Shown: in pieces, positions 33,142 to 48,146 of the stretch
Layout of the letters: each line of letters starts with the position of its first letter
Position numbering within the stretch: the first letter of the stretch is position 1
Assembly: GCA_027452245.1 (NCBI GenBank)
Contig: DAIDGW010000017.1
Span: 18,483 to 82,482, forward strand
DNA length: 64,000 nucleotides
Direction of reading: 5' to 3'
Source of the DNA: Acidobacteriaceae bacterium
Lineage (GTDB): Bacteria > Acidobacteriota > Terriglobia > Terriglobales > Acidobacteriaceae
The notes under the pieces: model-generated
Told to the model about the DNA's origin: nothing
What the model saw: the letters and a program-made list of their open reading frames with translations, nothing else
The model's database searches: none
Made by a program: the position numbers and the translations under genes

Positions 33142-36100
33142 ATGCGGAAACAAATCTCAATAAGCTCGGTTGTCTTTTGTTTGTTCCTCTGTGGAACCCG
33201 CTTAGCCTTCTCTCAATTTCAGCAGGGGATCCAGTTCCCAACAGGGAGTAACCCCGGAGCGCTCGCGGCAGGAGACTTCAACGGAGACGGCAAAAACGAT
33301 CTGGCCGTAGTGAACTCCGCCAGCAACACCGTCAGCGTATTGTTGGCGACTGGAAACGGCAATTTTCAGGCAAAGGTCGATTACGCCAGCGGAACCTCAC
33401 CGCAGCAGATAGCGGTCGCCGATTTCAATGGAGATGGAAAACTGGATCTGGCGGTCACGAATCGGACGTCCAACACCGTCAGCGTGCTTCTCGGCAATGG
33501 GGATGGAACCTTTCAATCCAAAATCGATTACCCAACCGGGCACCAGCCAACCGGTTTGGCATCGCAGGACGTGAACGGAGACGGCAAGCTGGACCTGGTT
33601 GTGACGAACTCTTTGGATGGCACGGTTAGCGTGCTTCTGGGGATCGGCGACGGTACTTTCCGGGTCCATGTCGACTACAACGTGGGATTAAATCCGACGT
33701 CCGTGGCGATCGGGGACTTCAACGGCGATCAACATCCAGACCTCGTAGTTGCCATGACCAATGACAGCAACACGATCAGTATTCTTCTCGGCAACGGAGA
33801 TGGCACCTTTCAGAATCCCCTCGCGTACCCTACCGGGCGTGCACCGTCCTGGGTTGCCGCTGCTGACCTAAATGGCGATGGCGTGCTTGATTTGGCGGTC
33901 GCCGACGAACTCGGCAACACCGTCAGCGTACTGCTGGGCAAAGGAGACGGCTCCTTCCCCCTGCATGTCGAGTATCCCACCGGCATCTTCCCCACCTCGG
34001 TGGCAGTTGCAGATCTCAACCAGGACGGGAAATTGGATCTCGCAGTCACAAATGCGAACAGCAATTCCGTGAGTATCCTGCTGGGCAATGGGGATGGGAC
34101 CTTCCAGTCACAGTTGGGCTACGGTGTCGGCAGCGCACCCTTAATGGCGATACTCGCGGATATGAACGGAGATAGCACTCTCGACATGGTGGCAGCGAAT
34201 AGCGGAGGAAATAGCATTAGCGTCGTCTTCGGGAATAGCGACGGGACATTTCAGACACGCGTGGACTACCCGTCAGGCGTGGATTCATCCGCCCTGACAA
34301 TCGCAGACTTTAGGAACAACGGTATAGCTGATATGGCGGTAGCAAATTCCGCCAGCAACAACATTGCCGCGCTGTTGGGTAATGGCAACGGCAGCTTCCA
34401 GGAGGCCGCTGACTATTCCACTGGCCCCAATAGCGGTTCTTCCGCTGTCGCGGAGGCCGACTTTAACAGCGACGGAAACGCCGATTTGGCCGTAGCCAAT
34501 TACGACAGCAACAGCGTTGGCGTTTTGTTGGGTAATGGAGATGGAACGTTTCAGACGGCAATCGAATTTCCCACGGGAACCAGTCCTGTTGCAATTGCAA
34601 CAGGAGATTTCAACCGCGACGGCAAAATTGATGTGGTATTGGCGGATTTCAATTCAAACAGCCTGAGCGTGCTTCTCGGCAACGGGGATGGCTCGTTGGC
34701 ACCGCAGGTCGAATATGCGGTCGGAAATAAACCTGTTTCGGTGGTAGTCGTGGACTTCAATCGTGACGGCAATCCCGATTTGGCGGTGGCCAATCAAGGC
34801 GACGGCGATCTCACCGTGCTCCTCGGGAATGGAGATGGTACGTTCGCGACTCCGCTTTCCTACGCGATCGGCACTTACGGGAACCCCAGTGGGGTTGTAT
34901 CGGCCGATTTCAATGGCGATGGCATCCCGGATCTGGCAGTCTCCGATCTCGACGCCCAGGCCGTCAGCATCCTCCTCGGCAACGGAGATGGCACGTTTGG
35001 CACGCCTTTGACATATCCGGTGGGGACCAGCCCCTATTCAATTGTCACCGCAGACATCAACGGAGATGGCAATCTCGACCTGGTCTTTTCCAGTTCGACG
35101 GATGCCCTGGTCACGGTGCTCTTAGGCAACGGCGATGGCACATTCTCCTCGCCCGCTCTTTTCGCTGCCGCTCCACAATCTCAATGGGTACAGATCGGAG
35201 ACTTCAATGGCGACGGTGCACCCGATCTGGCGGTTGCCGATGGGCTCAATAACACGGTTAGTATCTTCCTTAATGGCCGCGGCACAATGGCCGGCGTTAC
35301 GGCATCAAGCAACCCGTCTTCCTTTGGTGAACCCATTGAGTTCACCGCTACAATTTCAGCCAGTCTGCGAGGCTCAGGAACACCAACTGGAGTCGTCAAT
35401 CTTCTTGACGGCACGAGTCTTCTGGGCAGTTCGAATCTCAACGCAGGCGGACAGGCGGTCTTCTCTTTCAGTCAGCTTAGTGTAGGTGTCCACAGCATCA
35501 CAGCCCAATACCGCGGAGATCCTAACTTCAATCCCAATCGCTCAAGCGTCTTAAACCAGACTGTGGTCAAGGCACAGACCACCACTGGGCTGAGTTCATC
35601 TCCGAATCCATCGACAGCAAATCAGCCGATCGACTTCACCGCTACCGTCAATTCCGTTTCCGGAGTCCCAACGGGCACGGTCAGTTTCTGGGACGGGACA
35701 ACCCTCCTCGGCAATGCGGCCGTGAACCAAAGTGGCGTGGCGCTGCTTCCGCTCGCGGCACTCACCGCGGGAACACACATTGTGACCGCCTCCTACAGCG
35801 GAGATCCACATTTCAATCCCAGCAGTTCACCCCAGTTGAGCCAAAACGTCCTGAAAACCGCTAGCGGTATAACTCTGACCTCGTCTGTCAATCCTTCCGC
35901 CCTCAAACAGGCGGTGACCTTCAGCGTCGTGGTCACCCCTTCAACAACCGGCAACGTAAGCTTCTTTGACAATGCGACTCTGCTAGGCAGCGTTTCGCTT
36001 AACGCTGACTCTCTAGCTGAATTCACAATTGCCAATCTCGCTTCCGGCAGCCACTCTATCATTGCTAATTACAATGGCAACGCCACCGTCAACCCCAGTA

Positions 36101-36657
36101 CTTCGGCAGTGCTCGTGCAGAGTGTCTTCGGTCCGGCAGGCTTTCGCCTGAGCACATCTCCGAGCAGCGCCAGCATTCAACCGGGTGCAGCAGCCAACTT
36201 CACCATCCTGGCCACAGCGAAAAACGGATTCCAAGGCAAAGTCCAACTCGCCTGCGCCGGACTGCCGGCAATGGCAGAGTGTCAATTCACTCCCAGTTCA
36301 ATCTCACCGGGCGCCAGCGGCGCAACTTCAGCGCTGGTCATCAGCACCAACTCCACCGCCATGCTGACGCGTCCGATACTGAGAAGTGAAGGCGTACCCA
36401 GCTTCGCTCTGTGGATGACTCCGATCATGTTGCTGGGCATCTTCGCAGTTGGCGGCTCGAATCGCAGGTGGTTCTTCCCTCGACTCATGCTTTTCCTGGC
36501 GCTCATAGTCGCTTCTTTCCTGGTGGCCTGCGGCGGAGGCGGCACGGGCACTGCCGCAAGTCCGGGTGGCACTCCGGCAGGAAGCTATGCGATTACCATA
36601 TCCGGGACGGCTGGCAACGCGCAGAGTACCACGTCGCTCACGCTGACCGTGCAATAA
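33142..36657 (+). CDS. giant secreted FG-GAP/VCBS-repeat protein (14 blades) with Ig-like domains and C-terminal hydrophobic-hairpin module
   Basis: Signal peptide 'ISSVVFCLFLCGTRLAFSQ'. 14 tandem repeats of the 'DFNGDGK.DLAV.N..SNTVSVLLGNGDGTFQ' type. Three 'Big_3_5'-like modules ('P..F.ATV....PTG.V.F.DG...LG...........L..G.H.I.A.Y.GD..F..S'). C-terminal module at 36400-36654. Confidence 0.9.
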   Translation: MRKQISISSVVFCLFLCGTRLAFSQFQQGIQFPTGSNPGALAAGDFNGDGKNDLAVVNSASNTVSVLLATGNGNFQAKVDYASGTSPQQIAVADFNGDGKLDLAVTNRTSNTVSVLLGNGDGTFQSKIDYPTGHQPTGLASQDVNGDGKLDLVVTNSLDGTVSVLLGIGDGTFRVHVDYNVGLNPTSVAIGDFNGDQHPDLVVAMTNDSNTISILLGNGDGTFQNPLAYPTGRAPSWVAAADLNGDGVLDLAVADELGNTVSVLLGKGDGSFPLHVEYPTGIFPTSVAVADLNQDGKLDLAVTNANSNSVSILLGNGDGTFQSQLGYGVGSAPLMAILADMNGDSTLDMVAANSGGNSISVVFGNSDGTFQTRVDYPSGVDSSALTIADFRNNGIADMAVANSASNNIAALLGNGNGSFQEAADYSTGPNSGSSAVAEADFNSDGNADLAVANYDSNSVGVLLGNGDGTFQTAIEFPTGTSPVAIATGDFNRDGKIDVVLADFNSNSLSVLLGNGDGSLAPQVEYAVGNKPVSVVVVDFNRDGNPDLAVANQGDGDLTVLLGNGDGTFATPLSYAIGTYGNPSGVVSADFNGDGIPDLAVSDLDAQAVSILLGNGDGTFGTPLTYPVGTSPYSIVTADINGDGNLDLVFSSSTDALVTVLLGNGDGTFSSPALFAAAPQSQWVQIGDFNGDGAPDLAVADGLNNTVSIFLNGRGTMAGVTASSNPSSFGEPIEFTATISASLRGSGTPTGVVNLLDGTSLLGSSNLNAGGQAVFSFSQLSVGVHSITAQYRGDPNFNPNRSSVLNQTVVKAQTTTGLSSSPNPSTANQPIDFTATVNSVSGVPTGTVSFWDGTTLLGNAAVNQSGVALLPLAALTAGTHIVTASYSGDPHFNPSSSPQLSQNVLKTASGITLTSSVNPSALKQAVTFSVVVTPSTTGNVSFFDNATLLGSVSLNADSLAEFTIANLASGSHSIIANYNGNATVNPSTSAVLVQSVFGPAGFRLSTSPSSASIQPGAAANFTILATAKNGFQGKVQLACAGLPAMAECQFTPSSISPGASGATSALVISTNSTAMLTRPILRSEGVPSFALWMTPIMLLGIFAVGGSNRRWFFPRLMLFLALIVASFLVACGGGGTGTAASPGGTPAGSYAITISGTAGNAQSTTSLTLTVQ
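33229..35283 (+). repeat. 14 tandem in-frame ~49-aa FG-GAP repeats (coding repeat array)
   Basis: I counted 14 consecutive units by eye, each with a D-x-N-x-D-G-x-x-D Ca-binding-like loop followed by 'VLLGNGDGTF'. 685 aa over 14 units gives about 49 aa per unit, consistent with two 7-bladed propellers. Confidence 0.85.
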
Positions 36658-36801: not shown

Positions 36802-37056
36802 ATGGGACACGCAATTAGGGCAGGTCTTGCGATTGCCGTTATCCTCTCGGTCGCGGCCATTTTGATTACTCCTACTTGTTCGGACGATGTCGATGCGGTT
36901 CTCCATCATCAATTTCAGATCCTCCATCCTGCCTTCACGGCCGGGGCTCACATTGGCGATTCGCTGGCTAACCTGTTATTGTGGGTAGGCAATCTCGATT
37001 CTCCCCATCTCCATTTCACTCACTTGGTGGACCTTCTGTGTGCTCGCCTCTGCTAG
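36802..37056 (+). CDS. hypothetical small membrane protein
   Basis: 84-aa ORF with an N-terminal hydrophobic helix 'AGLAIAVILSVAAILITP'. A consensus-like promoter lies directly upstream. There is no SD sequence. Confidence 0.35.
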   Translation: MGHAIRAGLAIAVILSVAAILITPTCSDDVDAVLHHQFQILHPAFTAGAHIGDSLANLLLWVGNLDSPHLHFTHLVDLLCARLC

Positions 37057-37187
37057 CAACTTCCTGCTCGCCACGCTGAGATTCCTGGGCCCGTCCTAGC
37101 GCCTCATTTTCATTTTTGCATGCGAGTAGTGCTCTCGGGTTCCGCGGCAGTGAACTACTCTCCACATGAAGGAGGTAACCGTTTCAA

Positions 37188-37388
37188 ATGGGCCGATCCG
37201 CAATGCTGATCAAGCAGATTCAGGAGAGAATCAATGCGATTGAAACTGAGGCCGCGCGACTGATGGTATTCGCGAATATTACTTCCGACGAAGCTCTCGG
37301 GGGCCGTCTTAAGAAAAGCGCTCGTTCAATTGCCAAGAATACCGCCGCAATTCAGAGGCGTCTGGCAACGCTCGATAAATCTACGTAA
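37188..37388 (+). CDS. hypothetical small helical protein
   Basis: 66-aa ORF. GAAGGAGG lies 12 nt upstream of the ATG. Heptad-like charged sequence. Confidence 0.35.
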   Translation: MGRSAMLIKQIQERINAIETEAARLMVFANITSDEALGGRLKKSARSIAKNTAAIQRRLATLDKST

Positions 37389-37404
37389 GATCTCAACTTC
37401 TTCT

Positions 37405-38814
37405 TTACCCACCTCGAGCGCGATCTTCTAGGCGGGCGATGGAATGTTTTGTCACTTTGTATCCCATGTCACTGCGCGACAGCCCCAGCATCCGCGCTGC
37501 TTCTGCCTGTACGCCATTCGCTTGCTCCAATGCTCTCTCGATCAGGGCTTTTTCGAAAGATGTCAGCAATTCGCGAAGTTGCACTACCGGTGGAAGGCTG
37601 CGAATCCATTGGCGCATTTCTAGCTTCTTTGTGGAGGGCACAGTTGAATCCGCAGAACTCAATGGCAGTTCCTCCGGGAAAATGGCTTCTCCCGGCCCTA
37701 AAATGTGTGCCCGCTCCAGAAGGTTACGCAGTTCTCGTATGTTCCCGGGAAATGCATACTCCATGATCTTCTGTAGACCCTCCGGGCTCATGTGCTTCGG
37801 CCGGATTTTCAAATCCTTGGCGATCTGCGTAGAGAGTACCTCGCATAAACCCGGAATATCTTCTTTTCGTTCGCGTAATGCGGGAATATGAATCGGGACG
37901 ACCGCCAGCCGATAATAGAGATCCTGGCGAAACAGTCCTTGCTGCACCCGTTCCTCGAGATTGCGATGTGTGGCAACCAGGACCCGTACATCTACAGTGC
38001 GGGCCTGCGTTGATCCTACCCGCACTACCTGACCATCCACCAGAACCCGAAGCAACTTGGCTTGGGCCGCAAGGGACATCTCTCCGGCTTCGTCTAGAAA
38101 AAGAGTGCCACCGTGCGCTGCCTCGAACAAACCTTGCCGGGCCCGATCTGCTCCGGTGAAAGCTCCGCGTTCGTGTCCGAAGAGCTCACTCTCAAGAAGA
38201 GTTTCCGTGAATGCAGCACAATTTACCGCGATCAGGGGCTTGTTGGCCCTCCGGCTGTTCCGATGAATAGCCCGTGCCACTAATTCTTTCCCTGTACCCG
38301 TTTCTCCTACGATGAGGACGGTTGCCTCGGTAGGGGCTACGCGCGCGATCTGTTCGCGTACAGCCTTTATCTCTGGACTATTCCCGAAGATGGTGTCAGT
38401 ACCGAACAGGCTGCCAACGGTTGATTTAAGTAATTGATTTTCGCGGAGTAGACTTGTCCGTTCACAGGCGCGCCGTACAGTTGCTCTTACGACTTCCGGG
38501 TTGAACGGCTTCGCAATAAAATCGAAAGCTCCTTGCCGCATACTCTCGACTGCAAGCTCAATGGTAGGCACGGCGGTAAGGAAGATTACCGCCACTGATT
38601 GGTCGCTCTCGTGGGCAATCGATAGGATTTTCAGCCCGTCTCCATCCGGCATTTTCTGGTCGGTGACCACGACGTCGTAATCGCGCTGGTTCAAAAGGGG
38701 GATCGCCGCTGTAACTCCGTCCGCTTCCTCGACCAGATGTCCGTCCAGCCGAAGATCCGAACTTAGAACGCGCCGTAGGTTAGGTTCGTCGTCGACGATC
38801 AGCAGTCTACCCAT
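37405..38814 (-). CDS. sigma-54-dependent response regulator (NtrC/AtoC family)
   Basis: REC 'LLIVDDEPNL...VVVTDQKMPDGDG'. AAA+ domain with 'GETGTGKE', 'ESELFGH' and 'GAFTGA'. Fis HTH 'NGVQAEAARMLGLSRSDMGYKV'. Its start overlaps the upstream kinase gene by 8 nt. Confidence 0.9.
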   Translation of the reverse strand: MGRLLIVDDEPNLRRVLSSDLRLDGHLVEEADGVTAAIPLLNQRDYDVVVTDQKMPDGDGLKILSIAHESDQSVAVIFLTAVPTIELAVESMRQGAFDFIAKPFNPEVVRATVRRACERTSLLRENQLLKSTVGSLFGTDTIFGNSPEIKAVREQIARVAPTEATVLIVGETGTGKELVARAIHRNSRRANKPLIAVNCAAFTETLLESELFGHERGAFTGADRARQGLFEAAHGGTLFLDEAGEMSLAAQAKLLRVLVDGQVVRVGSTQARTVDVRVLVATHRNLEERVQQGLFRQDLYYRLAVVPIHIPALRERKEDIPGLCEVLSTQIAKDLKIRPKHMSPEGLQKIMEYAFPGNIRELRNLLERAHILGPGEAIFPEELPLSSADSTVPSTKKLEMRQWIRSLPPVVQLRELLTSFEKALIERALEQANGVQAEAARMLGLSRSDMGYKVTKHSIARLEDRARGG

Positions 38815-40141
38815 GGTTGCTTGCTCCCTTATCGACGCGATTAGTGTCGGAAACCGTCATTGAAAAACAAACATGCCCGAGTTCATTGCGAGCCACCACA
38901 AGATCACCGCCATGTGCCCGTGCGATATTTCTCGAAATTGCCAGTCCCAGACCGGTGCCGTGCGGTTTTGTCGTGTAAAACGGTTCGAATATTCTGGACA
39001 GAGCCTCGCTTGAGATAGGAATGCCGGTATTTTCCACTTGAATTTCCACATTGTTATCTGAAAGACGGTGGCTCCTGATCGCGACCCTCCCGCCCGGGGG
39101 CGTAGCATCAAGAGCGTTCAGCAGCAGATTAAGCAAGGCACTTTGGATCTGCCCCCGATCCACATCGGCGCATTGGCCGTTTTCACTTTCGATGTCGATC
39201 CTTATGCCTCTGTTCACCCCTTGGACGTTCCCGATCTCTGCAACGTAACCCAGGATTTCAGAAAGGTCGATCCGGCTCCGCGCAGGATGATTTGGTCGAG
39301 CGTAGGAAAGGAAATCTGTCGTGAGCTTCTCCAGTCGCGCGGCCTCGCTCCGTGCGATGGAATACATTTCCCTCCTGTGTTGTTCCCCCGCTTCCGGACG
39401 ATCTGCTGTTACCAGCGAACTTGCAATGATGGCCACGGGATTCCTGATTTCGTGAGCTACCGCGCTGGATAGACGTCCGACTGCCGCGAGCCTTTCCTCG
39501 ACCACCAGCCTTTCTTTTGTGCTCTCCAATTCGTCAAGACTATGCACCAGCCGCTGCTGATCCCTGCGGAGTTGATTGACAAGCAACCAGACCAAAAGCC
39601 CCATAAGTGCATACACAAGAGAGATGACTCCCGCCTCAAGGTACTCGACCGCATAGGTTGCAGGGTGAAATTGCGCAAAATGCCACACCCAGAAAAAGGT
39701 CATGGAATCCGACACAATAATTACACCGATGCAGGTAGGAAGCCGAAACCGATAAGCGGCCTGCAAGACAGGCAATGCCAGAAGAACAAAGTATGGACTG
39801 TCCCCACGATCCGTCAGAAAAGCTAATAAGATGGCCAAACCAATATTTAGTGAGAGCGAACTCCAAACCAGCGCGTCTGCCAGGGATTCGCTAAGTGAGC
39901 GCACCACAGTCCAGAGCCATAGCAATTCGAGCATCTTTAACAAAAATGCAATGCCGAGCGTCAACAGTAAGGCAGGTGAGGGTTCGCCGAGCAGGGATGC
40001 GAACAAAGCGTGAAGCACTAGCAGCGCGCCCAAAACGAAAAGGTTCAGAGTCGCAAAAGCTATCTGCTGGTCTCTAAATGACTCGAAGTCGAACCGTGCT
40101 AACCCGGGAATCTCTTTCGATTGTGGTTTATCCGGCGTCAC
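38807..40141 (-). CDS. membrane sensor histidine kinase
   Basis: N-terminal ~190 aa with about 6 hydrophobic helices. H-box 'SSAVAHEIRNPV' and ATPase boxes 'LLNLLLNALDAT', 'ENTGIPI' and 'GTGLGLAIS'. Confidence 0.85.
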   Translation of the reverse strand: MTPDKPQSKEIPGLARFDFESFRDQQIAFATLNLFVLGALLVLHALFASLLGEPSPALLLTLGIAFLLKMLELLWLWTVVRSLSESLADALVWSSLSLNIGLAILLAFLTDRGDSPYFVLLALPVLQAAYRFRLPTCIGVIIVSDSMTFFWVWHFAQFHPATYAVEYLEAGVISLVYALMGLLVWLLVNQLRRDQQRLVHSLDELESTKERLVVEERLAAVGRLSSAVAHEIRNPVAIIASSLVTADRPEAGEQHRREMYSIARSEAARLEKLTTDFLSYARPNHPARSRIDLSEILGYVAEIGNVQGVNRGIRIDIESENGQCADVDRGQIQSALLNLLLNALDATPPGGRVAIRSHRLSDNNVEIQVENTGIPISSEALSRIFEPFYTTKPHGTGLGLAISRNIARAHGGDLVVARNELGHVCFSMTVSDTNRVDKGASNHG

Positions 40142-40235
40142 TGACGATTACAGTACTCCTTCGCCATCGAGTCAAGCCAAACAAGACTGTTACAAAAATG
40201 GCGGTCACTGGGCGTGGCCGCCAAATCGCACCATA

Positions 40236-41030
40236 TTAGCCGATTCTTACCTTTGACTGAACCATCCTTACCCCCGCCCCAATCGCCACGAACAGAAAGC
40301 CCAGCGCTCCCGACAAGGGCACGAGACTCGCAGTCTTGGGCAGTTCTGGTAAAGTCGGCTCCTGAACGGCAGCGGTAATGGTCGGAACCTCCTTTTTCTC
40401 TTCATAGAGCATAGGTCCTTCAAACGCGACATCTGGCCGAGGCGGCGCTTGGCCAGTTATCACCGTGTGCATCGTGGCCGATTGCACGGGCTCAATCGTC
40501 AATACAGTTGCTGAAACGTTCATTCCTTTTTTCAGCTCGAATACTGTTTTGTCTTCACCTCCGATGTGGAACACTGTCCCATCCGGTACGGTATATGACT
40601 TGTTCTTACCTCCAGGAAAGGCCAAGATCACATGCGGTCCATTGACGTGCCATACCTTTCCATTCACCGTTCTGAGCGTACGGACCTCTTTGGGGGTAGT
40701 AACCGTGTGTATCTCCTGGGACAGCCTGGTACCCGGTGTCAACTCATGCGCTGTCAAATCCTTCCCATCAACCTGGAACCTGGCATCCTCGCCCAAATTC
40801 AATAGCTCGAATTTGCCGCTTTCCAATTCCACGACGATCTCATGCCCCGACACGTGGATGACTTCCGCATTCTGAACGTGAGTTGGTTGAACTGCATGCG
40901 CCGGCTCTCCCAGTATCTTTGTGGTCGGCGGATGGCTTATATCCTGTGCGGCAGCGATCCCAGTCATGGCGCAAAAAAATGCCAATGTGACAAACGCCAA
41001 GCCGATTGTTTGTTGCCTGCTCTGCTTCAT
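40236..41030 (-). CDS. exported sortase-substrate candidate (C-terminal LPKTA sorting signal)
   Basis: ATG 41030 follows an AGGAGG and overlaps the sortase stop (ATGA). Signal peptide 'IGLAFVTLAFFCAMTGIAAAQ'. The C-terminus is 'LPELPKTAS-LVPLSGALGFLFVAIGAGV-RMVQSKVRIG', i.e. motif + hydrophobic helix + basic tail. The ORF-track start at 41153 lies inside the sortase gene. Confidence 0.75.
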   Translation of the reverse strand: MKQSRQQTIGLAFVTLAFFCAMTGIAAAQDISHPPTTKILGEPAHAVQPTHVQNAEVIHVSGHEIVVELESGKFELLNLGEDARFQVDGKDLTAHELTPGTRLSQEIHTVTTPKEVRTLRTVNGKVWHVNGPHVILAFPGGKNKSYTVPDGTVFHIGGEDKTVFELKKGMNVSATVLTIEPVQSATMHTVITGQAPPRPDVAFEGPMLYEEKKEVPTITAAVQEPTLPELPKTASLVPLSGALGFLFVAIGAGVRMVQSKVRIG

Positions 41031-41764
41031 TGTGTCCTCCTTCCTTGTGAGAATGATTTCGTCAGTGCCTCTTCCTGGGCGATCTCTTCCTGCAGAGAGG
41101 CTTCGACGATGTAACGCTTCGGCGCTGGCCCAACAAAATAGAACGGATAACACGTCACCAGCGTGAGCGACGGCTCCGACCTGGGCCGCAATATGCTGAC
41201 GTCCCCCGGGTCCACGATTCGGATACGCTCCACGGCATAAACAGTTTTTTCCGAAATCGTAATCAATTCAATCGGGTCTCCTGCGCGAATATCTCTCAGG
41301 GGACGAAAAAATCCGTCGCGGTGCCCCGCGATCCCGATATTGCCGCTCTGCCCGGGACGTGCCGTTCCGAGAATCCTTCCGACTCCACGGTTTAGCGTGA
41401 ATTCGTCGGTACCCTCCAGCACGGGAGCTTCCAAGTTCAGCCTAGGGATGCGCAATACGGCAAGAGTTCCAGAAAGCTTGCTGGACTTGGCTAGGCCCGA
41501 ATTACGGCTTTGCCCTGACGAGGAGGAGTGGTTTGCTTTCGGAATCTGATAGACGTTAGCGGAATAATTCTCCTCCTCGTACACCTCTTCACCTTCGCTC
41601 ATGTTCGCGGCAGACCTCAGGACATCACCGTGAATGCTCCTCAGCGCTGCCCGGGACATTACGAACCGATGAACATGGGCCAATGCAAATATCATCAGCA
41701 TCAGCAAGCCTGCCGTGAGCAGTCCACGTTCTACGACTCGTAATCCATTGCCCTTCGCTTTCAT
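41027..41764 (-). CDS. sortase-family transpeptidase
   Basis: N-terminal membrane anchor 'GLLTAGLLMLMIFALAHV'. Catalytic-type motifs 'IGIAGHRDGFF' (His), 'LTLVTCYP' (TLxTC Cys) and 'KRYIVEA' (Arg). Confidence 0.85.
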   Translation of the reverse strand: MKAKGNGLRVVERGLLTAGLLMLMIFALAHVHRFVMSRAALRSIHGDVLRSAANMSEGEEVYEEENYSANVYQIPKANHSSSSGQSRNSGLAKSSKLSGTLAVLRIPRLNLEAPVLEGTDEFTLNRGVGRILGTARPGQSGNIGIAGHRDGFFRPLRDIRAGDPIELITISEKTVYAVERIRIVDPGDVSILRPRSEPSLTLVTCYPFYFVGPAPKRYIVEASLQEEIAQEEALTKSFSQGRRTQ

Positions 41765-41769
41765 ATGCC

Positions 41770-42321
41770 TTAGTCCCTGTCGCGCTCTTTCTCGGCCGGC
41801 AAGGATGCATTGGCATCAACCGGCGTCGGCGCTACCATCGCCCGAACACCGAACTCATGTACGAGACGGCCTCCGTGGTGCGCGGTATTGACCAGCAGTA
41901 GAATGCCAACGCTGTACAACACCAGAAACGCCAGAGGCAAGATGGTCGTGGTGAGCCGAGTGTCCGCCCTTTTGGCTAACCACGGAGTCCCCACTAGCGC
42001 CACAAATATGACGGACAGCACGCTGAACACGATACGAGTACGCTCCGCCAGCGATTCGTGGTGCTCGAGCACCTGTTCCATGCCAGGTGCTCTCTCCGCC
42101 AGTCTGCCGGCGGCCTCGCCAGTTTCCACCGCAACCAACGTTGCCGCCGTCCCCGCAAGCAACAAAACCATCGCCGCGATCAGGTACGATCGGCCTTTCT
42201 CTGGCGACATCGCTGCTCCAACTGCTATGAAGACCGGAACAGTCAATAGGAGTGCGATCGGGAAGTGAATGATCAGAGGATGCAGAGCATCCCAAGTCGG
42301 AATTGGTGGAAACTCAAGCAT
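41770..42321 (-). CDS. DUF2231-like integral membrane protein
   Basis: 183 aa with 4 predicted helices. The N-terminal 'ALHPLIIHFPIALLL' matches the DUF2231 signature as I recall it. It lies 5 nt upstream of the sortase gene. Confidence 0.6.
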   Translation of the reverse strand: MLEFPPIPTWDALHPLIIHFPIALLLTVPVFIAVGAAMSPEKGRSYLIAAMVLLLAGTAATLVAVETGEAAGRLAERAPGMEQVLEHHESLAERTRIVFSVLSVIFVALVGTPWLAKRADTRLTTTILPLAFLVLYSVGILLLVNTAHHGGRLVHEFGVRAMVAPTPVDANASLPAEKERDRD

Positions 42322-42372
42322 ACGGGCTCCTCACTGCGAAGCAAGGCCGCCTTTAAATGGCGGCCTCGATCG

Positions 42373-42987
42373 CTAGCTCACTTTTTGGTATTTCTCTTTA
42401 TCATTGAAACACGACGGACATTTTGAAAAATCAATGCGCGCGGTCGTGTATCCGCAAATTGAACAGACGTAATAATCCTTCGCTTTTGATCCTTGGCTTT
42501 GTGCGAGATTGTTCAGCGCCTCGGAATACAGCTTCGCGTGCTCGGCCTCTGCCGTCTTTGCGTAGTTGAATGTCTGAACCGCATCCCGATTTCCCTCCGC
42601 GCGAGCTTGCTTAAGGAATTCTGGATACATGGTATCGCGCTCGTAAGACTCTCCTTTGATGGCGGCTTCAAGGTTGTCTTTCGTCGAACCGACGACCGCG
42701 GGCTCCATCTTCGCTTCGGGAGTTCCTCCCAGCTTCTTGATTACCACTGCGTGGTTTGCGGCATGAACCTCTTCCGCTTTGGCGGCCGCGCGAAACAAGC
42801 TCGCGACCTCACCATAGCCTTCGGTATCGGCCTTTTCCGCGAATGCAAGGTAGCGCGCATGAGCGTTGCTTTCGCCATTGAAGGCGGCCTGTAGATTTTC
42901 CAGGCTCGTCTGGGCTGCGTTAGCAACGCTTGTCAGGGCTGCCAGAGCGAGTACAACTACGATTACACCAGCGGCAACTTTCTTCAT
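42373..42987 (-). CDS. rubrerythrin with N-terminal signal-peptide-like segment
   Basis: ATG 42987 lies 8 nt after GGAGAG. 'MKKVAAGVIVVVLALAALTSVANA|AQ' looks like a Sec signal. Ferritin-like di-iron motifs 'ESNAHARYLAFA' and 'EAEHAKLY'. C-terminal rubredoxin-like 'CSICGY...CPSC'. The ORF-track start at 43146 adds 53 unlikely residues. Confidence 0.85.
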   Translation of the reverse strand: MKKVAAGVIVVVLALAALTSVANAAQTSLENLQAAFNGESNAHARYLAFAEKADTEGYGEVASLFRAAAKAEEVHAANHAVVIKKLGGTPEAKMEPAVVGSTKDNLEAAIKGESYERDTMYPEFLKQARAEGNRDAVQTFNYAKTAEAEHAKLYSEALNNLAQSQGSKAKDYYVCSICGYTTARIDFSKCPSCFNDKEKYQKVS

Positions 42988-43219
42988 ATCGAACACTCTC
43001 CAGTTTCGGTGAATGGCGGCCCCTAGGTACTGGGCGCCATCTTCAGTGTGATCTGCGCACGAAGCCTGCCAGCCTTCCCTCCTCCTATGTTGCAGATAAT
43101 AATGGCCGCTGCTCCGTGCTTCACGAAGACCGCCAGCATATGTCAAAGACCTCGGACAATGGCGTCAAAGGCTTGCGACGGACATGGCTACCGTCCATGA
43201 CCGCCTGCGACATCACATA

Positions 43220-46072
43220 TCAGAATGAGAATCGAACTTGGAAGTCTAGGGTACGATTGGCGGACGCGCTGCCGTGGCCGTTGCCATGGAGAGACGTGGA
43301 CTGGCCGAATAGCGGAGAGCTGAGATTGCCAACTGGCGTGTCGAGATTGACGCGATTAAGCAAGTTGCGAGCCGCCACAGAAAGCGTGAACGTATATTTT
43401 TGATCGCTCGTCCCTGCATCATGCTCGTGATGTCCGCTATGTCCTGGACCATGACCGGCCTGGAGATCCTGCCCGTTTGCTTTGGAGCCGGCAATATGAG
43501 CCCCGAAACCAAATGACTTGGACACGCGAAGGTTTACAGCGAACATTCCTGGACTCGATCCAAAATTTCGCGGAACGATGATTTGCCCCGCTTCGGGATG
43601 CCTGTCGAAAGCTCCCCACCTGGTTCGAATTACGGTTGGGCGGTTCAGATCCCGGGCCCACGCCGGCCGATCACTAAAGATGGAGTCGCCATTCAAATCC
43701 TCGCCAGTTGTGATATTGAACGGCGCACCGGAGTGGGCAACCATGAATGGACTGAATGTGAACCCGAATGGCGCAATAATCGTACCGCTGATAAAGGTGC
43801 GATGCCCGACATCGAATCCCGCACGGCTGAACTCTAAACTTGAATCGTAGGGATTTCCCGGGAAGGTCTCAGGACCATCCGTATCGCTCATCGCACTTCC
43901 CCACGCATAATATCCTTGCAATATAAACCTCTTGCTCATCCGCGCGTTCACATTTGCGATCAACTGATTCTGCAGAAACCGACCGTTCGATTGATAGGCG
44001 TAGATATTCCCGCCTGGGAAAGGCCTGACTCCACTGCCAGGCCGCGCCGGGTCATAAGTCCCCGGCAGAAAGGCGTTGATATTTTGAGATCGTAGGCTGC
44101 CTACTCCCACCGAGTTGGTATAAGTGCCGCTTAGCGTCAGCCGGTCGAAGAACTGCCGTTCCAACGTGAGAGCAAGCTGACGAGTGTAGGGCGCCCGCAG
44201 CTCGGTTCCAAGTATTCTCAGTGCCTGTTGCTGCGCGAAGCCCGACAGTTCGCCTATGTTCGGAACCGTGGGATAGAAATCTGGACTGGAAATGACAAAC
44301 TCCTGCTGCGATACACCGTTTAGGCGCTTCGTATCCAGCACCAGCGCTTCGCGAATTCGATCATAGAAGAGCCCGAACCCGGCACGGACAATCATGATTG
44401 GTTGTTGCGCCCCGGTGGTTCGCGGGGCCCAGGCAATTCCCAGGCGCGGCGCCCAACTGCGCCAGTCATTAATATTGTTTTGTATTTCGAAGCGAAGGCC
44501 GGCGCTCAGAGTTAGATCGTTCCGCCAACGCCAGTCATCTTGCACGAACCATCCAGTATCTACCTGGGTAATTTCTGCTACAGGATTGCCGGAAGCCAAT
44601 CGGAATTGGCTGGCTCCTCCACCGGTAGCCCGGATCTGGGCCGGACAGAGGCCGCTGCGTAGACCGGCTTCCGTAATGCGGTAGGCATCAAGAGTCGTGA
44701 ATCTGTAAACCCCGTTGTAGTTCTCCATCGAGCGGCTACTCTCACCGATAATTCGGAGGCGTGCACCCATCTTCAAACTGTGCCGCCCTCGAATGAGGGT
44801 CAGGGCATCGTGAAGTTCAAACCGGTTTTCGGTCAGGCCCGATAACCCCATCGTTGAACCCCCTGCCACGAATGCCTCGGAGACCTCCACCGTAGGAGCC
44901 GAATTCAATCCATGCAGCACATCGTGGCTGCGCCTGTACTGGAAGCGGATTTCGTGAAGAACACTTGGGCTAAGAATGGCAGCTTCGGTGACCTGCAACA
45001 GATGCTCTCGTTCATCGCTGTTGTAGGCATTCGAAGGCAGAGAAAAAGAATCGAGGCCGGCGTTCGTCTCTGTGTGCTTCTCCCATTCGTAACGTCCTGT
45101 GAATGTATGGTTCTGGTTCAGTTGGTAGTCAACGCGAGCGCTAATCTCGCTGTTGGCAGTGGGATTAAGGATGGAATCCCGGTAGGTCACTGGGTTAAGG
45201 TTCGAGTCCAACATGAGTGCATTGATCACAGCAGTTTGTCCGATATTCCGCTGCTCGAATTGAAGCGTGAACGATGAATTGCGGGTTAACGGACCCGTCA
45301 CTGTTCCTTCAAAAACGCGACGCTGAAAGTCCGGCTTCTCCACAGCAAAAGGATTCTGCGCATAGAACATAGAATCCCCAAAGTTGAATCTCCCTTCGCC
45401 GTGAAGCGCTGCGGCTCCGGGCTTGGTCAGAATTTCGATGCGGCCGAACCCGATCCGATCGTATTCGGCAGAGAATGGATTCTGGTTGACACGAATCTCA
45501 CGAATTGACGACTTAGGCGGAAGTTTGCCCCCAGAAAATCCATCCACATACAGTTCTCCTCCATCTGGACCGGCAGAGGGCCCCGCCAGTGCCATCAGAT
45601 CATCCGTCAAATCCTCAGGGTCGTCGGCGAGACTCTCCAGACTTGAGCCACTGAGCGTGATCGCACTGGCATTTGTCGTTGGTTCTGTATCCGGCGCCGA
45701 CCTTTCACTAACACGTACTTGCTCGGCTACGACTTCCATTTCAAGCCGGAAATCGCGTCTCAAAGTTCGTTCGGAGACAACTCGCAGCGTGGGCTCCGCG
45801 GAGTTTTGAAATCCCACAGCGCTCACTTCAACCCGATATTCGCCTGGAACGAGGATGAGGATGTAGATGCCAGCCGCATCTGAAATTGAAATTCTCACCA
45901 CACCAGTGGAATCGATTGCTGAGACCTTGGCATTGGGGATAACCGCCCCCGTGGGATCGGAAACCACACCTGATATTGTCCCCGCTTTCTCTTCGCCAGC
46001 CAGCCGTGGCAACACAAATGAGGATAAAAGAAGGGCCAACGCGAGGAAGCAAATACGAGGGAGATGCATCAT
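43220..46072 (-). CDS. TonB-dependent receptor with N-terminal carboxypeptidase-regulatory-like domain
   Basis: 950 aa. Signal peptide, CarboxypepD_reg-type 'ISGVVSDPTGAVIPNAKVSA...AGIYILILVPGEYRVEVSAVGF', a plug/barrel-length body, and a C-terminal 'LDFQVRFSF' with terminal Phe. Confidence 0.9.
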   Translation of the reverse strand: MMHLPRICFLALALLLSSFVLPRLAGEEKAGTISGVVSDPTGAVIPNAKVSAIDSTGVVRISISDAAGIYILILVPGEYRVEVSAVGFQNSAEPTLRVVSERTLRRDFRLEMEVVAEQVRVSERSAPDTEPTTNASAITLSGSSLESLADDPEDLTDDLMALAGPSAGPDGGELYVDGFSGGKLPPKSSIREIRVNQNPFSAEYDRIGFGRIEILTKPGAAALHGEGRFNFGDSMFYAQNPFAVEKPDFQRRVFEGTVTGPLTRNSSFTLQFEQRNIGQTAVINALMLDSNLNPVTYRDSILNPTANSEISARVDYQLNQNHTFTGRYEWEKHTETNAGLDSFSLPSNAYNSDEREHLLQVTEAAILSPSVLHEIRFQYRRSHDVLHGLNSAPTVEVSEAFVAGGSTMGLSGLTENRFELHDALTLIRGRHSLKMGARLRIIGESSRSMENYNGVYRFTTLDAYRITEAGLRSGLCPAQIRATGGGASQFRLASGNPVAEITQVDTGWFVQDDWRWRNDLTLSAGLRFEIQNNINDWRSWAPRLGIAWAPRTTGAQQPIMIVRAGFGLFYDRIREALVLDTKRLNGVSQQEFVISSPDFYPTVPNIGELSGFAQQQALRILGTELRAPYTRQLALTLERQFFDRLTLSGTYTNSVGVGSLRSQNINAFLPGTYDPARPGSGVRPFPGGNIYAYQSNGRFLQNQLIANVNARMSKRFILQGYYAWGSAMSDTDGPETFPGNPYDSSLEFSRAGFDVGHRTFISGTIIAPFGFTFSPFMVAHSGAPFNITTGEDLNGDSIFSDRPAWARDLNRPTVIRTRWGAFDRHPEAGQIIVPRNFGSSPGMFAVNLRVSKSFGFGAHIAGSKANGQDLQAGHGPGHSGHHEHDAGTSDQKYTFTLSVAARNLLNRVNLDTPVGNLSSPLFGQSTSLHGNGHGSASANRTLDFQVRFSF

Positions 46073-46329
46073 GAGCGCCTCACGGCCGAATCAATTTCTG
46101 GCTCACCTGCTGTCCCGATTCTGCAGAGAAGTCGCAGGTGGCAAGAAGCCGCGTCCATCTGTAGTCGCTCCGCGCTGTCCAGGACGCGCCCATACCACAG
46201 TTCTCGAGCGCGACGCCGGATAGCCTGCTGGGCCCGGCTAACGCGCTTACGCACTTTCTCAGGGTCCCGTTCAAGAATGGCCTCGCGATACAACGTCAGC
46301 CATTTCGTGTTCTCGTCGCCGTCCACCAC
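46069..46329 (-). CDS. small conserved-looking helical protein translationally coupled to the TonB-dependent receptor
   Basis: GTG 46329 lies 8 nt after GGAGGAG (46344-46338). 86 aa, 'LYREAILERDPEKVRKRVSRAQQAIRRRAREL...'. The stop TGA (46071-46069) overlaps the receptor ATG (46072-46070). The ORF-track start at 46482 has no SD. Confidence 0.5.
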   Translation of the reverse strand: MVDGDENTKWLTLYREAILERDPEKVRKRVSRAQQAIRRRARELWYGRVLDSAERLQMDAASCHLRLLCRIGTAGEPEIDSAVRRS

Positions 46330-46778
46330 TTTCGACGCTCCTCCACCTCGGCAACCCAGGCTGAGCCTCCTGCCTGACGAGATTGATTCTCTCGACCCCT
46401 GACACAAGAAAGATAGATTCTTGGGTGGAACGCTCTCCTTCCGCACGACAGGTGCCAACTCGGGGATGCACCACCTTCCCAAAAATCAACTGCATCACCG
46501 ATTAGCTCAGCAAGTGATCTGAGGCACGTCAAAGGAATCGGACTGCAATGTCCAAACCATCGGACACTTGAGACGCATCAACTGCTCTCCGACATGAACT
46601 CATAAAGCTGGATTGGACCACGTCCTGAAACCGCCCGCTGCTTTGTTGTCTGTCAATTACCGCGTGTTTCGTGAGCGACACTCCGCCGGCCTGGTAACGA
46701 TCTGCCACCGCTCCCCTCTTGTTGTATGCGGCAATGAACCTGCAACGAAGTTCACGGAAGAGAGCTGACTCCATAGCT

Positions 46779-47198
46779 ATGGAGCCCGTCGAGATCATCG
46801 TCATGAATACGCGTCGCAGAAAACTTCTGGTTGCTGATTGCCATGGTGACACTCTTGTCGTCTTGGAGAAGTTGCTTGAGGACGCCGGTTTCGACACGAC
46901 CACCGTGTGGACAGCGAAAGACGCGCTCAGTCTCCTGGACTCTGGCACTTTTGATCTTTTGCTCCTCAACCAATATCTACCGGATGCGCGATGCGAAGAG
47001 TTTCTGAAAGAACTGGGTAAGAGACGTGAACCCCTTGCTTGTATCGTCATACTGCCAAGCGAACCGGAAATGGCTGACTTCACGCACCTTGAAACGCTGG
47101 GCGCGCGCGACGTTGTTTGCAAGCGCGCTTACCGACAAGTCGTTGCAGCTGTCAGAGAATGTCTCGCTTGCAACCAGAACTCAATTCCAGCCGCCTGA
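46779..47198 (+). CDS. receiver-like (pseudo-receiver) domain protein
   Basis: CheY-like pattern 'KLLVADCHGD', 'FDLLLLNQYLPD', 'CIVILPS' and 'VVCKRA'. Asn replaces the phospho-acceptor Asp. The start is uncertain (ATGs at 46719, 46779 and 46803). Confidence 0.5.
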   Translation: MEPVEIIVMNTRRRKLLVADCHGDTLVVLEKLLEDAGFDTTTVWTAKDALSLLDSGTFDLLLLNQYLPDARCEEFLKELGKRREPLACIVILPSEPEMADFTHLETLGARDVVCKRAYRQVVAAVRECLACNQNSIPAA

Positions 47199-47657: not shown

Positions 47658-48146
47658 ATGAAATACAAAAACCTGTTACTGGTTTCACTGGGAACGCTGC
47701 TGATCGCATCCCCAGCACTTCGGGCCGATACCGGCTACACCGATGAAGAACCCGCTGTTGCGCAGGACGTAGCCAACCACTTGTCTGAGCTTGAAGCACA
47801 GGCCTCGAAGGTCGGACGACATGCTGAGAGTCTATGGATGATCTCGCGGAGCCATCACACAGCTCGAGACAGTCACGCCTACTATATGAACAACCTTATG
47901 CGCGACATCAATAGCATGGGGCAACTTCTCGCCGAACTGGAGCAAATGAAGCCACAGGCCACGGAGTCGCAGAAAATGGCCATCGACAACGCTCGTTTAC
48001 ACTTGGTGACCCTGGCCGACAAAACCACCGAAGCTCGCGATTTGCTTCGGGCTGGAGGGGAAAACGTCAAACAGACTCAGTACAAAGAAACAGTTGCCGA
48101 ACTGTCCAGGCAAGCGGACATTTTCCATCAAGAGTTAGCAAGATAG
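47658..48146 (+). CDS. exported hypothetical helical protein
   Basis: ATG 47658 lies 7 nt after GGAGGG. Signal peptide 'LLLVSLGTLLIASPALRA'. The rest is predicted helical. Confidence 0.55.
   Translation: MKYKNLLLVSLGTLLIASPALRADTGYTDEEPAVAQDVANHLSELEAQASKVGRHAESLWMISRSHHTARDSHAYYMNNLMRDINSMGQLLAELEQMKPQATESQKMAIDNARLHLVTLADKTTEARDLLRAGGENVKQTQYKETVAELSRQADIFHQELAR

Follow-up and report, generated by a model that had tools for sequence, protein, structure and literature searches.

A 64,000-nt stretch of DNA from an Acidobacteriaceae bacterium (the window) carries on its minus strand six genes that encode a rubrerythrin with a signal peptide, a DUF2231 membrane protein, a sortase, a protein ending in a sorting signal (the substrate), a histidine kinase and a sigma-54 activator (Table 1). 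An earlier reading made from the letters alone (the sequence-only reading) had reported this gene order, the spacings of 51, 5 and -4 nt between the first four genes, and the regulatory genes downstream of them, all of which match the sequence. Our analysis indicates that the locus is probably a same-strand envelope regulon of about 9 kb, built round an autonomous sortase/substrate cassette in a diderm member of the Terriglobia.

Co-transcription of the first four genes, and probably the translational coupling of the last two, had also been proposed and are supported by the 5-nt gap, the ATGA overlap, and an AGGAGG within the 3' end of the sortase gene, 5 nt 5' of the substrate ATG. The host had been called diderm-type, and this holds because the operon adjoins the gene of a 950-residue outer-membrane barrel (CarboxypepD_reg and OMP_b-brl_4 domains, TonB-dependent-receptor-like). 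The relatives of the locus lie in Terriglobia, 'Candidatus Sulfotelmatobacter' and metagenome-assembled genomes (MAGs) of Acidobacteriaceae.

Table 1. Genes and sequence features of the locus, in window coordinates. ORF, open reading frame; UTR, untranslated region.
Feature	Position	Strand	Remarks
Second composite promoter (candidate)	46443..46565	-	GTCCGATGGTTTGGAC, 6 nt, GTCCGATTCCTTTGAC, 70 nt, TGGCACCTGTCGTGC; tandem sites 46565-46528, -24/-12 element 46457-46443
Small ORF	46069..46329	-	~86 aa, '...NTKWLTLYREAILERDPEKV...'; downstream of second promoter; start codon uncertain
Outer-membrane beta-barrel	43220..46072	-	CarboxypepD_reg + OMP_b-brl_4; between second promoter and rubrerythrin operon
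Tandem upstream sites (candidate activator sites)	43142..43179	-	GTCGCAAGCCTTTGAC, 7 nt, GTCCGAGGTCTTTGAC; GTC-N10-GAC
Third conserved A/T-rich block	43084..43104 (approximate)	-	CATTATTATCTGCAACATAGG; relatives TTTGTTyTGTGCAACTTG; 18-copy alignment
Sigma-54-type -24/-12 element	43057..43071	-	TGGCAGGCTTCGTGC; GG-N10-GC spacing
5'-UTR stem-loop	43013..43040	-	ATGGCG ... CGCCAT, read from alignment
Exported rubrerythrin gene	42987-42373	-	ATG with GGAGAG upstream
GC-rich hairpin, rubrerythrin-DUF2231 gap	42343..42367	-	-31 kcal/mol, z-score -3.7; no U-tract
DUF2231 gene	42321-41770	-	51-nt gap after rubrerythrin
Sortase gene	41764-41027	-	5-nt gap after DUF2231
Sortase substrate gene	41030-40236	-	4-nt ATGA overlap (41030-41027) with sortase
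GC-rich palindrome/hairpin after substrate	40192..40222	-	GGCGGCC...GACCGCC, then ATTTTTGT in the window
Histidine kinase gene	40141-38807	-	94-nt gap after substrate gene
Sigma-54 activator gene	38814-37405	-	8-nt overlap with kinase gene

A class-D-like sortase and its substrate

The domain assignments were all recovered by hidden Markov model searches: Rubrerythrin PF02915 (E 3e-27, 96 bits against 22.8), DUF2231 PF09990 (E 4e-13), and Sortase PF04203 (E 7e-30, 103.8 bits against a gathering score of 26.6), the last of which identifies a genuine sortase. The enzyme has an N-terminal, type-II membrane anchor, and a sequence comparison with the PDB ranks the two solved class D enzymes first, 2LN7 (E 7.6e-22) ahead of 4D70 (E 1.4e-13). 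In particular, it is 36% identical to the Bacillus anthracis SrtC (2LN7) over 127 residues, and its GIAGHRDG, TLVTCYPF and KRYIVEA segments align to SGHRD, TLTTCYPF and DRYIIEA of that enzyme. The GHRD, TLVTCYPF and RYIVEA motifs also align to those of 4D70 and are invariant in seven diverse relatives, which places the proposed His, Cys and Arg at the catalytic positions.

By sequence, the sortase is class-D-like and stands at the edge of class D in NCBIfam. It is only just at the threshold of NF058671, a class D model specific for LPxTATN, with 140.2 bits against a cut-off of 140, where the motif of the window substrate is LPKTASL, not LPxTATN. The cut-offs of class_D_sortase NF033746 (129.9 bits against 165) and of the Gram-negative 'marine' class TIGR03784 (83.9 bits against 158.25) are not reached, and the class C model scores far below its own (78 bits against 160). 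Neither the sortase nor the substrate of the window has an exact match in the contig index.

The substrate, about 260 residues long, consists of a signal peptide, a pair of small beta-barrels, a linker rich in Pro and Ala, LPKTAS, a transmembrane helix and a basic tail. Its C-terminus reads LPKTAS, then LVPLSGALGFLFVAIGAGV, then RMVQSKVRIG; the complete sorting signal described earlier (LPKTA, hydrophobic stretch, basic tail) is thus present in the sequence, and the AlphaFold2 (AF2) model places a helix at residues 237-262. This signal is the sole sorting signal in the window. Residues 50-200 are modelled at a pLDDT of about 95 as two small beta-barrels joined by long strands. A Foldseek comparison of the model with the PDB returned nothing with E below 1e-3; the likeness to the MalK regulatory domain, the PAN N-domain and EF-P is merely local, in barrels of OB/TOBE/SH3-like type.

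Neither Pfam nor NCBIfam matches the substrate. Its family, of 488 clusters at 90% identity and 477 at 50%, offers a domain family new to both databases. Across an alignment of 44 members, a signal peptide ending in A-Q is followed by two repeats of about 70 residues and a variable Pro/Ala-rich spacer; the L, P and T of the motif are invariant, and [AG][ST]xxPLxGLxG, a hydrophobic helix and a basic tail come after them. Motif usage falls from LPKTA through LPKTG to LPRTA, LPNTA and LPQTA, with LPQTG also found, and the next residue is mostly Ser. The same alignment has no family-wide conserved His, Cys, Asp or Glu, its conserved columns being mostly Gly, Leu and Val, which argues against the substrate being an enzyme or having a fixed metal site.

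Existing models for sorting signals detect part of the family. TIGR01167 matches 17 of the 44 members at E up to 0.05 (the five inspected score 16.7-21.9 bits against a cut-off of 15.9) and PF00746 matches 11 at the same limit; the window substrate matches neither at E 0.01. TIGR03788 matches two members weakly in the tail region (E 0.0027) and does not match the window protein. A sub-threshold match to Geobacter ExtJ in 15 of the 44 (17.6 bits against a cut-off of 52.5 in the one inspected) is a lead only.

In the window's sub-clade, loci L011 and L012 included, the substrates have 9-12 His among about 200 mature residues (4.2-5.6%), where the rest of the family averages 1.9%, a contrast whose p-value ignores phylogeny and is not used as functional evidence. 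This richness may be a metal-binding specialisation or a mere clade trait.

The closest solved relatives of the enzyme, B. anthracis SrtC/'SrtD' (2LN7) and Clostridium perfringens SrtD (4D70), share the TLxTCYPF...AP.RYI signature and have few dedicated substrates. Signals reported for class D sortases include LPNTA(S) and LPQTGS (PMC4498605), and the LPKTAS signal of the window fits this LPxTA/LPxTGS type. Unlike these enzymes, which belong to sporulating Gram-positive bacteria, the window sortase is found in a diderm acidobacterium, its substrate family is unrelated to BasH or BasI, and its expression is predicted to depend on sigma-54 and a two-component system.

The view that a one-sortase/one-substrate pair in a diderm is undescribed in kind is not supported, given an earlier description of strictly Gram-negative dedicated sortases (TIGR03784) with an adjacent LPXTG target (PMC3237569). 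That system, the marine proteobacterial class GN (TIGR03784/TIGR03788), sets a Gram-negative sortase beside one target, with a motif of LP[QK]T[AS] type. It differs from the window in sortase class and phylum; the window's own target, with two barrels and about 260 residues, has no von Willebrand A domain, and a regulatory promoter is defined here. Because such cassettes had already been described (PMC3237569), the locus is not a new kind of system; what is new for a Gram-negative cassette is the sortase class, the target family, the phylum and the defined regulation.

Cassette distribution and genomic neighbours

A genome scan with the substrate yielded 14 loci, in which the six window proteins were placed by tblastn; L001, obtained by exact look-up, is the same contig as L007. 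The six genes are syntenic and in the same order in 10 distinct species-level genomes (L002-L010, with L001 counted as L007) and in the metagenome locus L024. Since this synteny extends across distinct genomes whose flanks differ from locus to locus, the six-gene arrangement is not due to chance.

The 44-sequence substrate alignment was too diverse for a metagenome scan, and an alignment of seven sortase sequences was used in its place; it gave more than 583 matches in soil metagenomes, from which 80 loci with 41-58% identity were kept. Together with the 477 substrate clusters at 50% identity, these matches make the cassette abundant in soil Acidobacteriota. Among the 65 kept loci with at least 400 nt of room, 54 have a substrate-family ORF directly downstream of the sortase. 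Elsewhere, the substrate ORF lies upstream (two loci), 2 kb away (one locus), or apparently fused to the sortase (at least one locus, L041). The two genes also adjoin each other in the unrelated contexts of L101-L104. Three loci of the genome scan (L011, L012 and L014) have only the sortase and substrate of the six genes, and in L013 the sortase is 5 kb away. Motif-less homologues, which end in a plain C-terminal helix without LPxT[AG], have no sortase nearby.

Because the neighbours vary while the adjacency persists, and the motif-less members lack a sortase, the functional unit is the two-gene cassette. The substrate is a genuine cognate of the sortase, as was claimed, given the adjacency in 54 of 65 loci and a sorting signal whose L, P and T are invariant. 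Other cassettes neighbour an ECF sigma factor (five loci), a receiver-less sigma-54 activator (six loci) or a HisKA_3/GerE two-component system.

A fixed pairing with rubrerythrin and DUF2231 had also been proposed, and is not supported. The two genes occur in only four of the 80 metagenome loci (L021-L024, the closest relatives), and they are missing from L011 and L012, though the sortase and substrate of these two loci are as window-like as those of some six-gene loci. Of these four, L024 alone combines rubrerythrin, DUF2231, the kinase and a REC-containing activator; L021-L023 are short contigs. Conservation of the neighbourhood is therefore confirmed as six-gene synteny (L002-L010 and L024) and not supported as a wider link, the association of rubrerythrin and DUF2231 with the cassette being confined to the window's own Terriglobia clade, where comparative sequence evidence identifies it as a clade-specific operon fusion onto the cassette.

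The rubrerythrin begins with the Sec-type signal peptide MKKVAAGVIVVVLALAALTSVANA|AQ, which is conserved in its orthologues, and has the ligand motifs of a di-iron four-helix bundle (GESNAH, EEVHA, GESYE and EAEHA) and a C-terminal CxxC...CxxC. Rubrerythrin and nigerythrin are cytoplasmic peroxidases of anaerobes. The window protein shares with them the di-iron ligand motifs, the rubredoxin-like CxxC...CxxC and a passing match to the Pfam Rubrerythrin family; it differs in having a Sec-type signal peptide, with a predicted periplasmic location, and in scoring below the NCBIfam equivalog cut-offs of the rubrerythrin and nigerythrin models (147 against 340 bits in one and 106.7 against 200 in the other). 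An exported rubrerythrin requires a periplasmic electron donor and a route to iron.

The AF2 model of the DUF2231 protein is a bundle of four long transmembrane helices (pLDDT 76), with H14, H19, E66, E69, H88, H148 and H155 invariant. Applying the positive-inside rule to this model, all of the invariant His and Glu are predicted to lie at periplasm-facing helix ends. Foldseek returned no PDB match to the model with E below 1e-3, only generic four-helix bundles; a tblastn search of 72,556 plasmids gave no match, and a protein search retrieved close orthologues only (68-84% identity). Literature searches returned nothing relevant on DUF2231, 'periplasmic rubrerythrin', or sortases together with Acidobacteria. 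That the DUF2231 protein may supply electrons or metal to the exported rubrerythrin is an attractive idea, and its pairing with a rubrerythrin that is predicted to be periplasmic is a possible lead to the function of DUF2231.

Several irregular loci were encountered. In L002 (5818-6558) and L024 (6550-7290), a Crp/Fnr-type regulator (cNMP_binding and HTH_Crp_2) is inserted between rubrerythrin and DUF2231; the first ~23 codons of the L002 insert duplicate the 5' end of the DUF2231 gene (MLQFPAIP...HPLI), and the L002 sortase seems frameshifted. Single ORFs join the N-terminal half of a sortase to the C-terminal half of a substrate in L041 (7929-9521, 530 aa, ending in LPETGS), L029 (1389-2681, 430 aa) and P0123 (534 aa). 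These could be real fusions or stops missed through assembly error, and a true fusion would be topologically awkward. Further, a secreted protein (about 340-375 aa) that lacks both a Pfam match and an LPxTG tail recurs near the sortase in nine diverse loci (L013, L027, L029, L041, L057, L072, L078, L079 and L093) and is directly downstream of it in L013.

Some MAGs in which the cassette or the six-gene cluster occurs carry non-acidobacterial labels: L014 Acidimicrobiia, L010 Gammaproteobacteria, and P0078 and P0307 Dormibacteraeota. In L014, an AsmA/YhdP-family protein, a diderm feature, is encoded 1 kb from the cassette. Faulty binning or classification seems to lie behind these labels rather than a wider taxonomic range. 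Genes of the AsmA/YhdP family adjoin substrate-family genes in L105 (1776-3359) and L014 (9699-11168), one of the two substrate-family proteins being motif-bearing and the other motif-less; with only two unrelated loci, this may be coincidence.

The candidate sigma-54 promoter and its probable regulators

The kinase consists of HisKA and HATPase_c domains behind a hydrophobic N-terminal half of about 200 residues without a recognised sensor domain, and its best NCBIfam matches, AtoS and ZraS, are all below cut-off. The activator is of the NtrC family, with Response_reg, Sigma54_activat (E 4e-72) and HTH_8 (a Fis-type helix-turn-helix) domains and GAFTGA in its translation.

Alignment of the regions upstream of rubrerythrin in 10 loci, followed by a pattern scan, revealed a composite element of the form GTCCGA-N4-TyGGAC, 6-7 nt, GTCCGATTCyTyTGAC, 70-74 nt, TGGCmC-N5-CGTGC. 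Its first two parts are GTC-N10-GAC pairs, which in the window lie 92 and 70 nt upstream of the -24 element, and the spacing from the proximal site to the -24 element is 70-74 nt in all copies. Within the last part, TGGC and CGTGC are conserved intergenic columns, and TGGC-N7-GTGC occurs only four times in the window. The conserved A/T-rich block between the upstream sites and the -24 element, a region in which sites for bending proteins are frequent, is possibly a bending site of IHF type.

Each of the 11 six-gene loci with a covered upstream region has the composite element ahead of rubrerythrin, and it is missing from every locus that lacks the kinase and activator. The sequence-only reading had raised the possibility that the regulator pair controls the unit. 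With the candidate promoter confined to loci that encode the pair, such control of the rubrerythrin operon is very probable.

In the other 76 loci, the DNA preceding the sortase genes has no match on either strand to a strict canonical sigma-54 consensus, and the reading of sigma-54 control given here is limited to the window's clade. A mismatch search for TGGCAC-N5-TTGCW in the window does no better than on shuffled sequence. The TGTC-N10-GACA at 48103-48120 was set aside for want of a -24/-12 partner.

A second copy of the composite element, whose TGGC-N7-GTGC is another of the four in the window, precedes the small ORF and the barrel gene, and such a copy also occurs in seven related distinct loci (among them L001/L007, a single contig, and L002, L003, L005, L006 and L009). 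The small ORF, of the 'NWLxLYREAxLExD' type and without a Pfam match, has a stop codon that shares an ATGA with the barrel gene's start. In L005, L006 and L009 the second promoter is followed by a homologous small ORF, and in L001 and L003 by a DUF2934 protein. In L005, a barrel ORF also lies upstream of rubrerythrin, as judged by position, the ORF itself being unannotated. This second copy extends the putative regulon about 3.5 kb beyond the operon, and its matching sites suggest that the kinase/activator pair most likely drives it too.

A membrane kinase and an NtrC-family activator beside a sigma-54 operon for periplasmic proteins recall ZraPSR, and the top NCBIfam matches of the two regulators include ZraS and ZraR, far below the cut-offs (146 against 479 and 364 against 760). 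Unlike ZraPSR, the locus has no ZraP homologue and its kinase has no Pfam-recognised periplasmic sensor, so that the likeness is architectural only. The arrangement of a sigma-54 promoter with upstream sites is usable for mapping an acidobacterial two-component regulon in genomes.

Three predicted hairpins lie along the operon, and a comparison of 37000-47000 with Rfam at E up to 1 was empty. The putative stem in the 5'-UTR recurs at the same place in relatives as GCGAUC/GGUCGC or GCGACC/GGTCGC, as read from the alignment. A hairpin occupies the rubrerythrin-DUF2231 position in seven relatives with differing sequences, and may stabilise the upstream message or attenuate read-through. The palindrome after the substrate gene keeps its stem sequence in 10 loci, with little covariation, and the U-tract that follows it in the window is not conserved; it could be a terminator-like operon boundary or a protein-binding site. 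Just 5' of the kinase GTG, at 40190-40142 on the minus strand, all six-gene loci conserve TTGACT-N17-T(G/C)TAAT followed by CG(TC/AA)A-GTG. This block may be a sigma-70-like promoter for a nearly leaderless kinase/activator transcript, or its GGAG may be a distant ribosome-binding site.

Proposed wall tethering and its alternatives

The explanation that best accommodates these findings, and which we regard as moderately probable as a whole, combines the cassette, wall anchoring and a sigma-54 regulon. The substrate would be exported by Sec and kept in the inner membrane by its C-terminal helix until the sortase cuts LPKTA between Thr and Ala and joins the protein to a nucleophilic amine. If class D enzymes are a guide, this amine would most likely be that of a diaminopimelate side chain in lipid II or peptidoglycan, which would leave the two-barrel domain attached to the periplasmic wall by its spacer. 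Only in the window's clade would rubrerythrin, DUF2231, sortase and substrate stand together behind one sigma-54 promoter with two upstream sites, which the kinase and activator would switch on upon an envelope signal, at best guess oxidative or metal stress; the second promoter, before the small ORF and the barrel gene, would most likely respond as well. We infer the catalysis, the acceptor and the stimulus.

We know of no experiment that has established the role of a sortase in an outer-membrane bacterium. With one enzyme, one 260-residue substrate and a signal like those of the studied class D enzymes, an in-vitro test of cleavage and of diaminopimelate as the acceptor is straightforward.

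Several points weigh against this explanation. The attachment to peptidoglycan is drawn entirely from the Gram-positive class D analogy, and the one-sortase/one-substrate status comes from a scan confined to the 64-kb window. Family members in L018-L020 carry LPKTAS without a sortase within about 1.2 kb. The -12 element reads GTGC and not the canonical TTGC. Moreover, many of the six-gene loci are fairly close relatives, with substrates 64-75% identical to that of the window, so that conservation of the promoter could partly be shared ancestry, although beyond the motifs the copy of the window and that of L005 differ clearly.

In a fuller version of the wall-anchoring explanation, a class-D-like sortase of Terriglobia would link a His-rich, two-barrel periplasmic protein covalently to the thin peptidoglycan, a wall anchoring of Gram-positive style within a diderm periplasm; in one lineage this would be part of a sigma-54 envelope-stress regulon in which DUF2231 feeds electrons or iron across the inner membrane to a Sec-exported rubrerythrin. 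We put it forward as a tentative possibility. As a rival, and as the sequence-only reading had suggested, the four genes may form a single periplasmic redox/metal module, with the His-rich protein, tethered to wall or membrane, as an iron or metal chaperone or a docking scaffold, and DUF2231 passing electrons or metal across the inner membrane to the peroxidase. The placement of the four genes behind one promoter in 12 loci with differing flanks would agree with this, as would the invariant His and Glu of DUF2231 at helix ends predicted to face the periplasm, the donor and iron supply that an exported rubrerythrin needs, and the His content of the clade substrates (4.2-5.6% against a mean of 1.9% elsewhere, subject to the phylogenetic limit given above). 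However, about 76 of the 80 metagenome loci, as well as L011 and L012, have the sortase/substrate pair but neither rubrerythrin nor DUF2231, and the substrates of L011 and L012 are equally His-rich though they have no rubrerythrin beside them. With the substrate family lacking any conserved His, Cys, Asp or Glu, and no fold match suggesting cofactor binding for either the substrate or the DUF2231 model, we consider a single module unlikely.

The fate of the cleaved protein admits two further alternatives. Sortases can hydrolyse a substrate when no nucleophile is present, and with an acceptor assigned by analogy the enzyme could be a processing enzyme only, hydrolysing LPKTA to free a soluble periplasmic or secreted protein without a wall linkage. 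The motif-less homologues stay anchored by their helix, so the domain works while tethered by a flexible linker, and the sortase-dependent form might be a releasable variant. Retention of the catalytic Arg and of the entire class D active-site architecture speaks against mere hydrolysis, as does the conserved Pro/Ala-rich spacer, which is typical of tethered proteins; a protein with only a signal peptide would also be a cheaper means of release, and processing alone is accordingly rated as improbable. Polymerisation of the substrate, or its ligation to another protein in a pilus-like manner, is an activity of class C sortases that the elongated beta rod of the AF2 model and a second substrate-family paralogue near the L014 cassette might recall. 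It was rejected as highly improbable, because no Lys is conserved in the 44-sequence alignment; nor is there a pilin-like motif, nearly all loci have one substrate gene per cassette, and the sortase is far from the class C model, as given above.

Beyond the regulon, the plus strand at 33142-36657 encodes an exported protein of 1171 aa with 15 FG-GAP/VCBS repeats and three Big_3_5 Ig-like domains. Towards its C-terminus, a hydrophobic segment precedes a Gly-rich region, an ending that is unrelated to the sortase signal.

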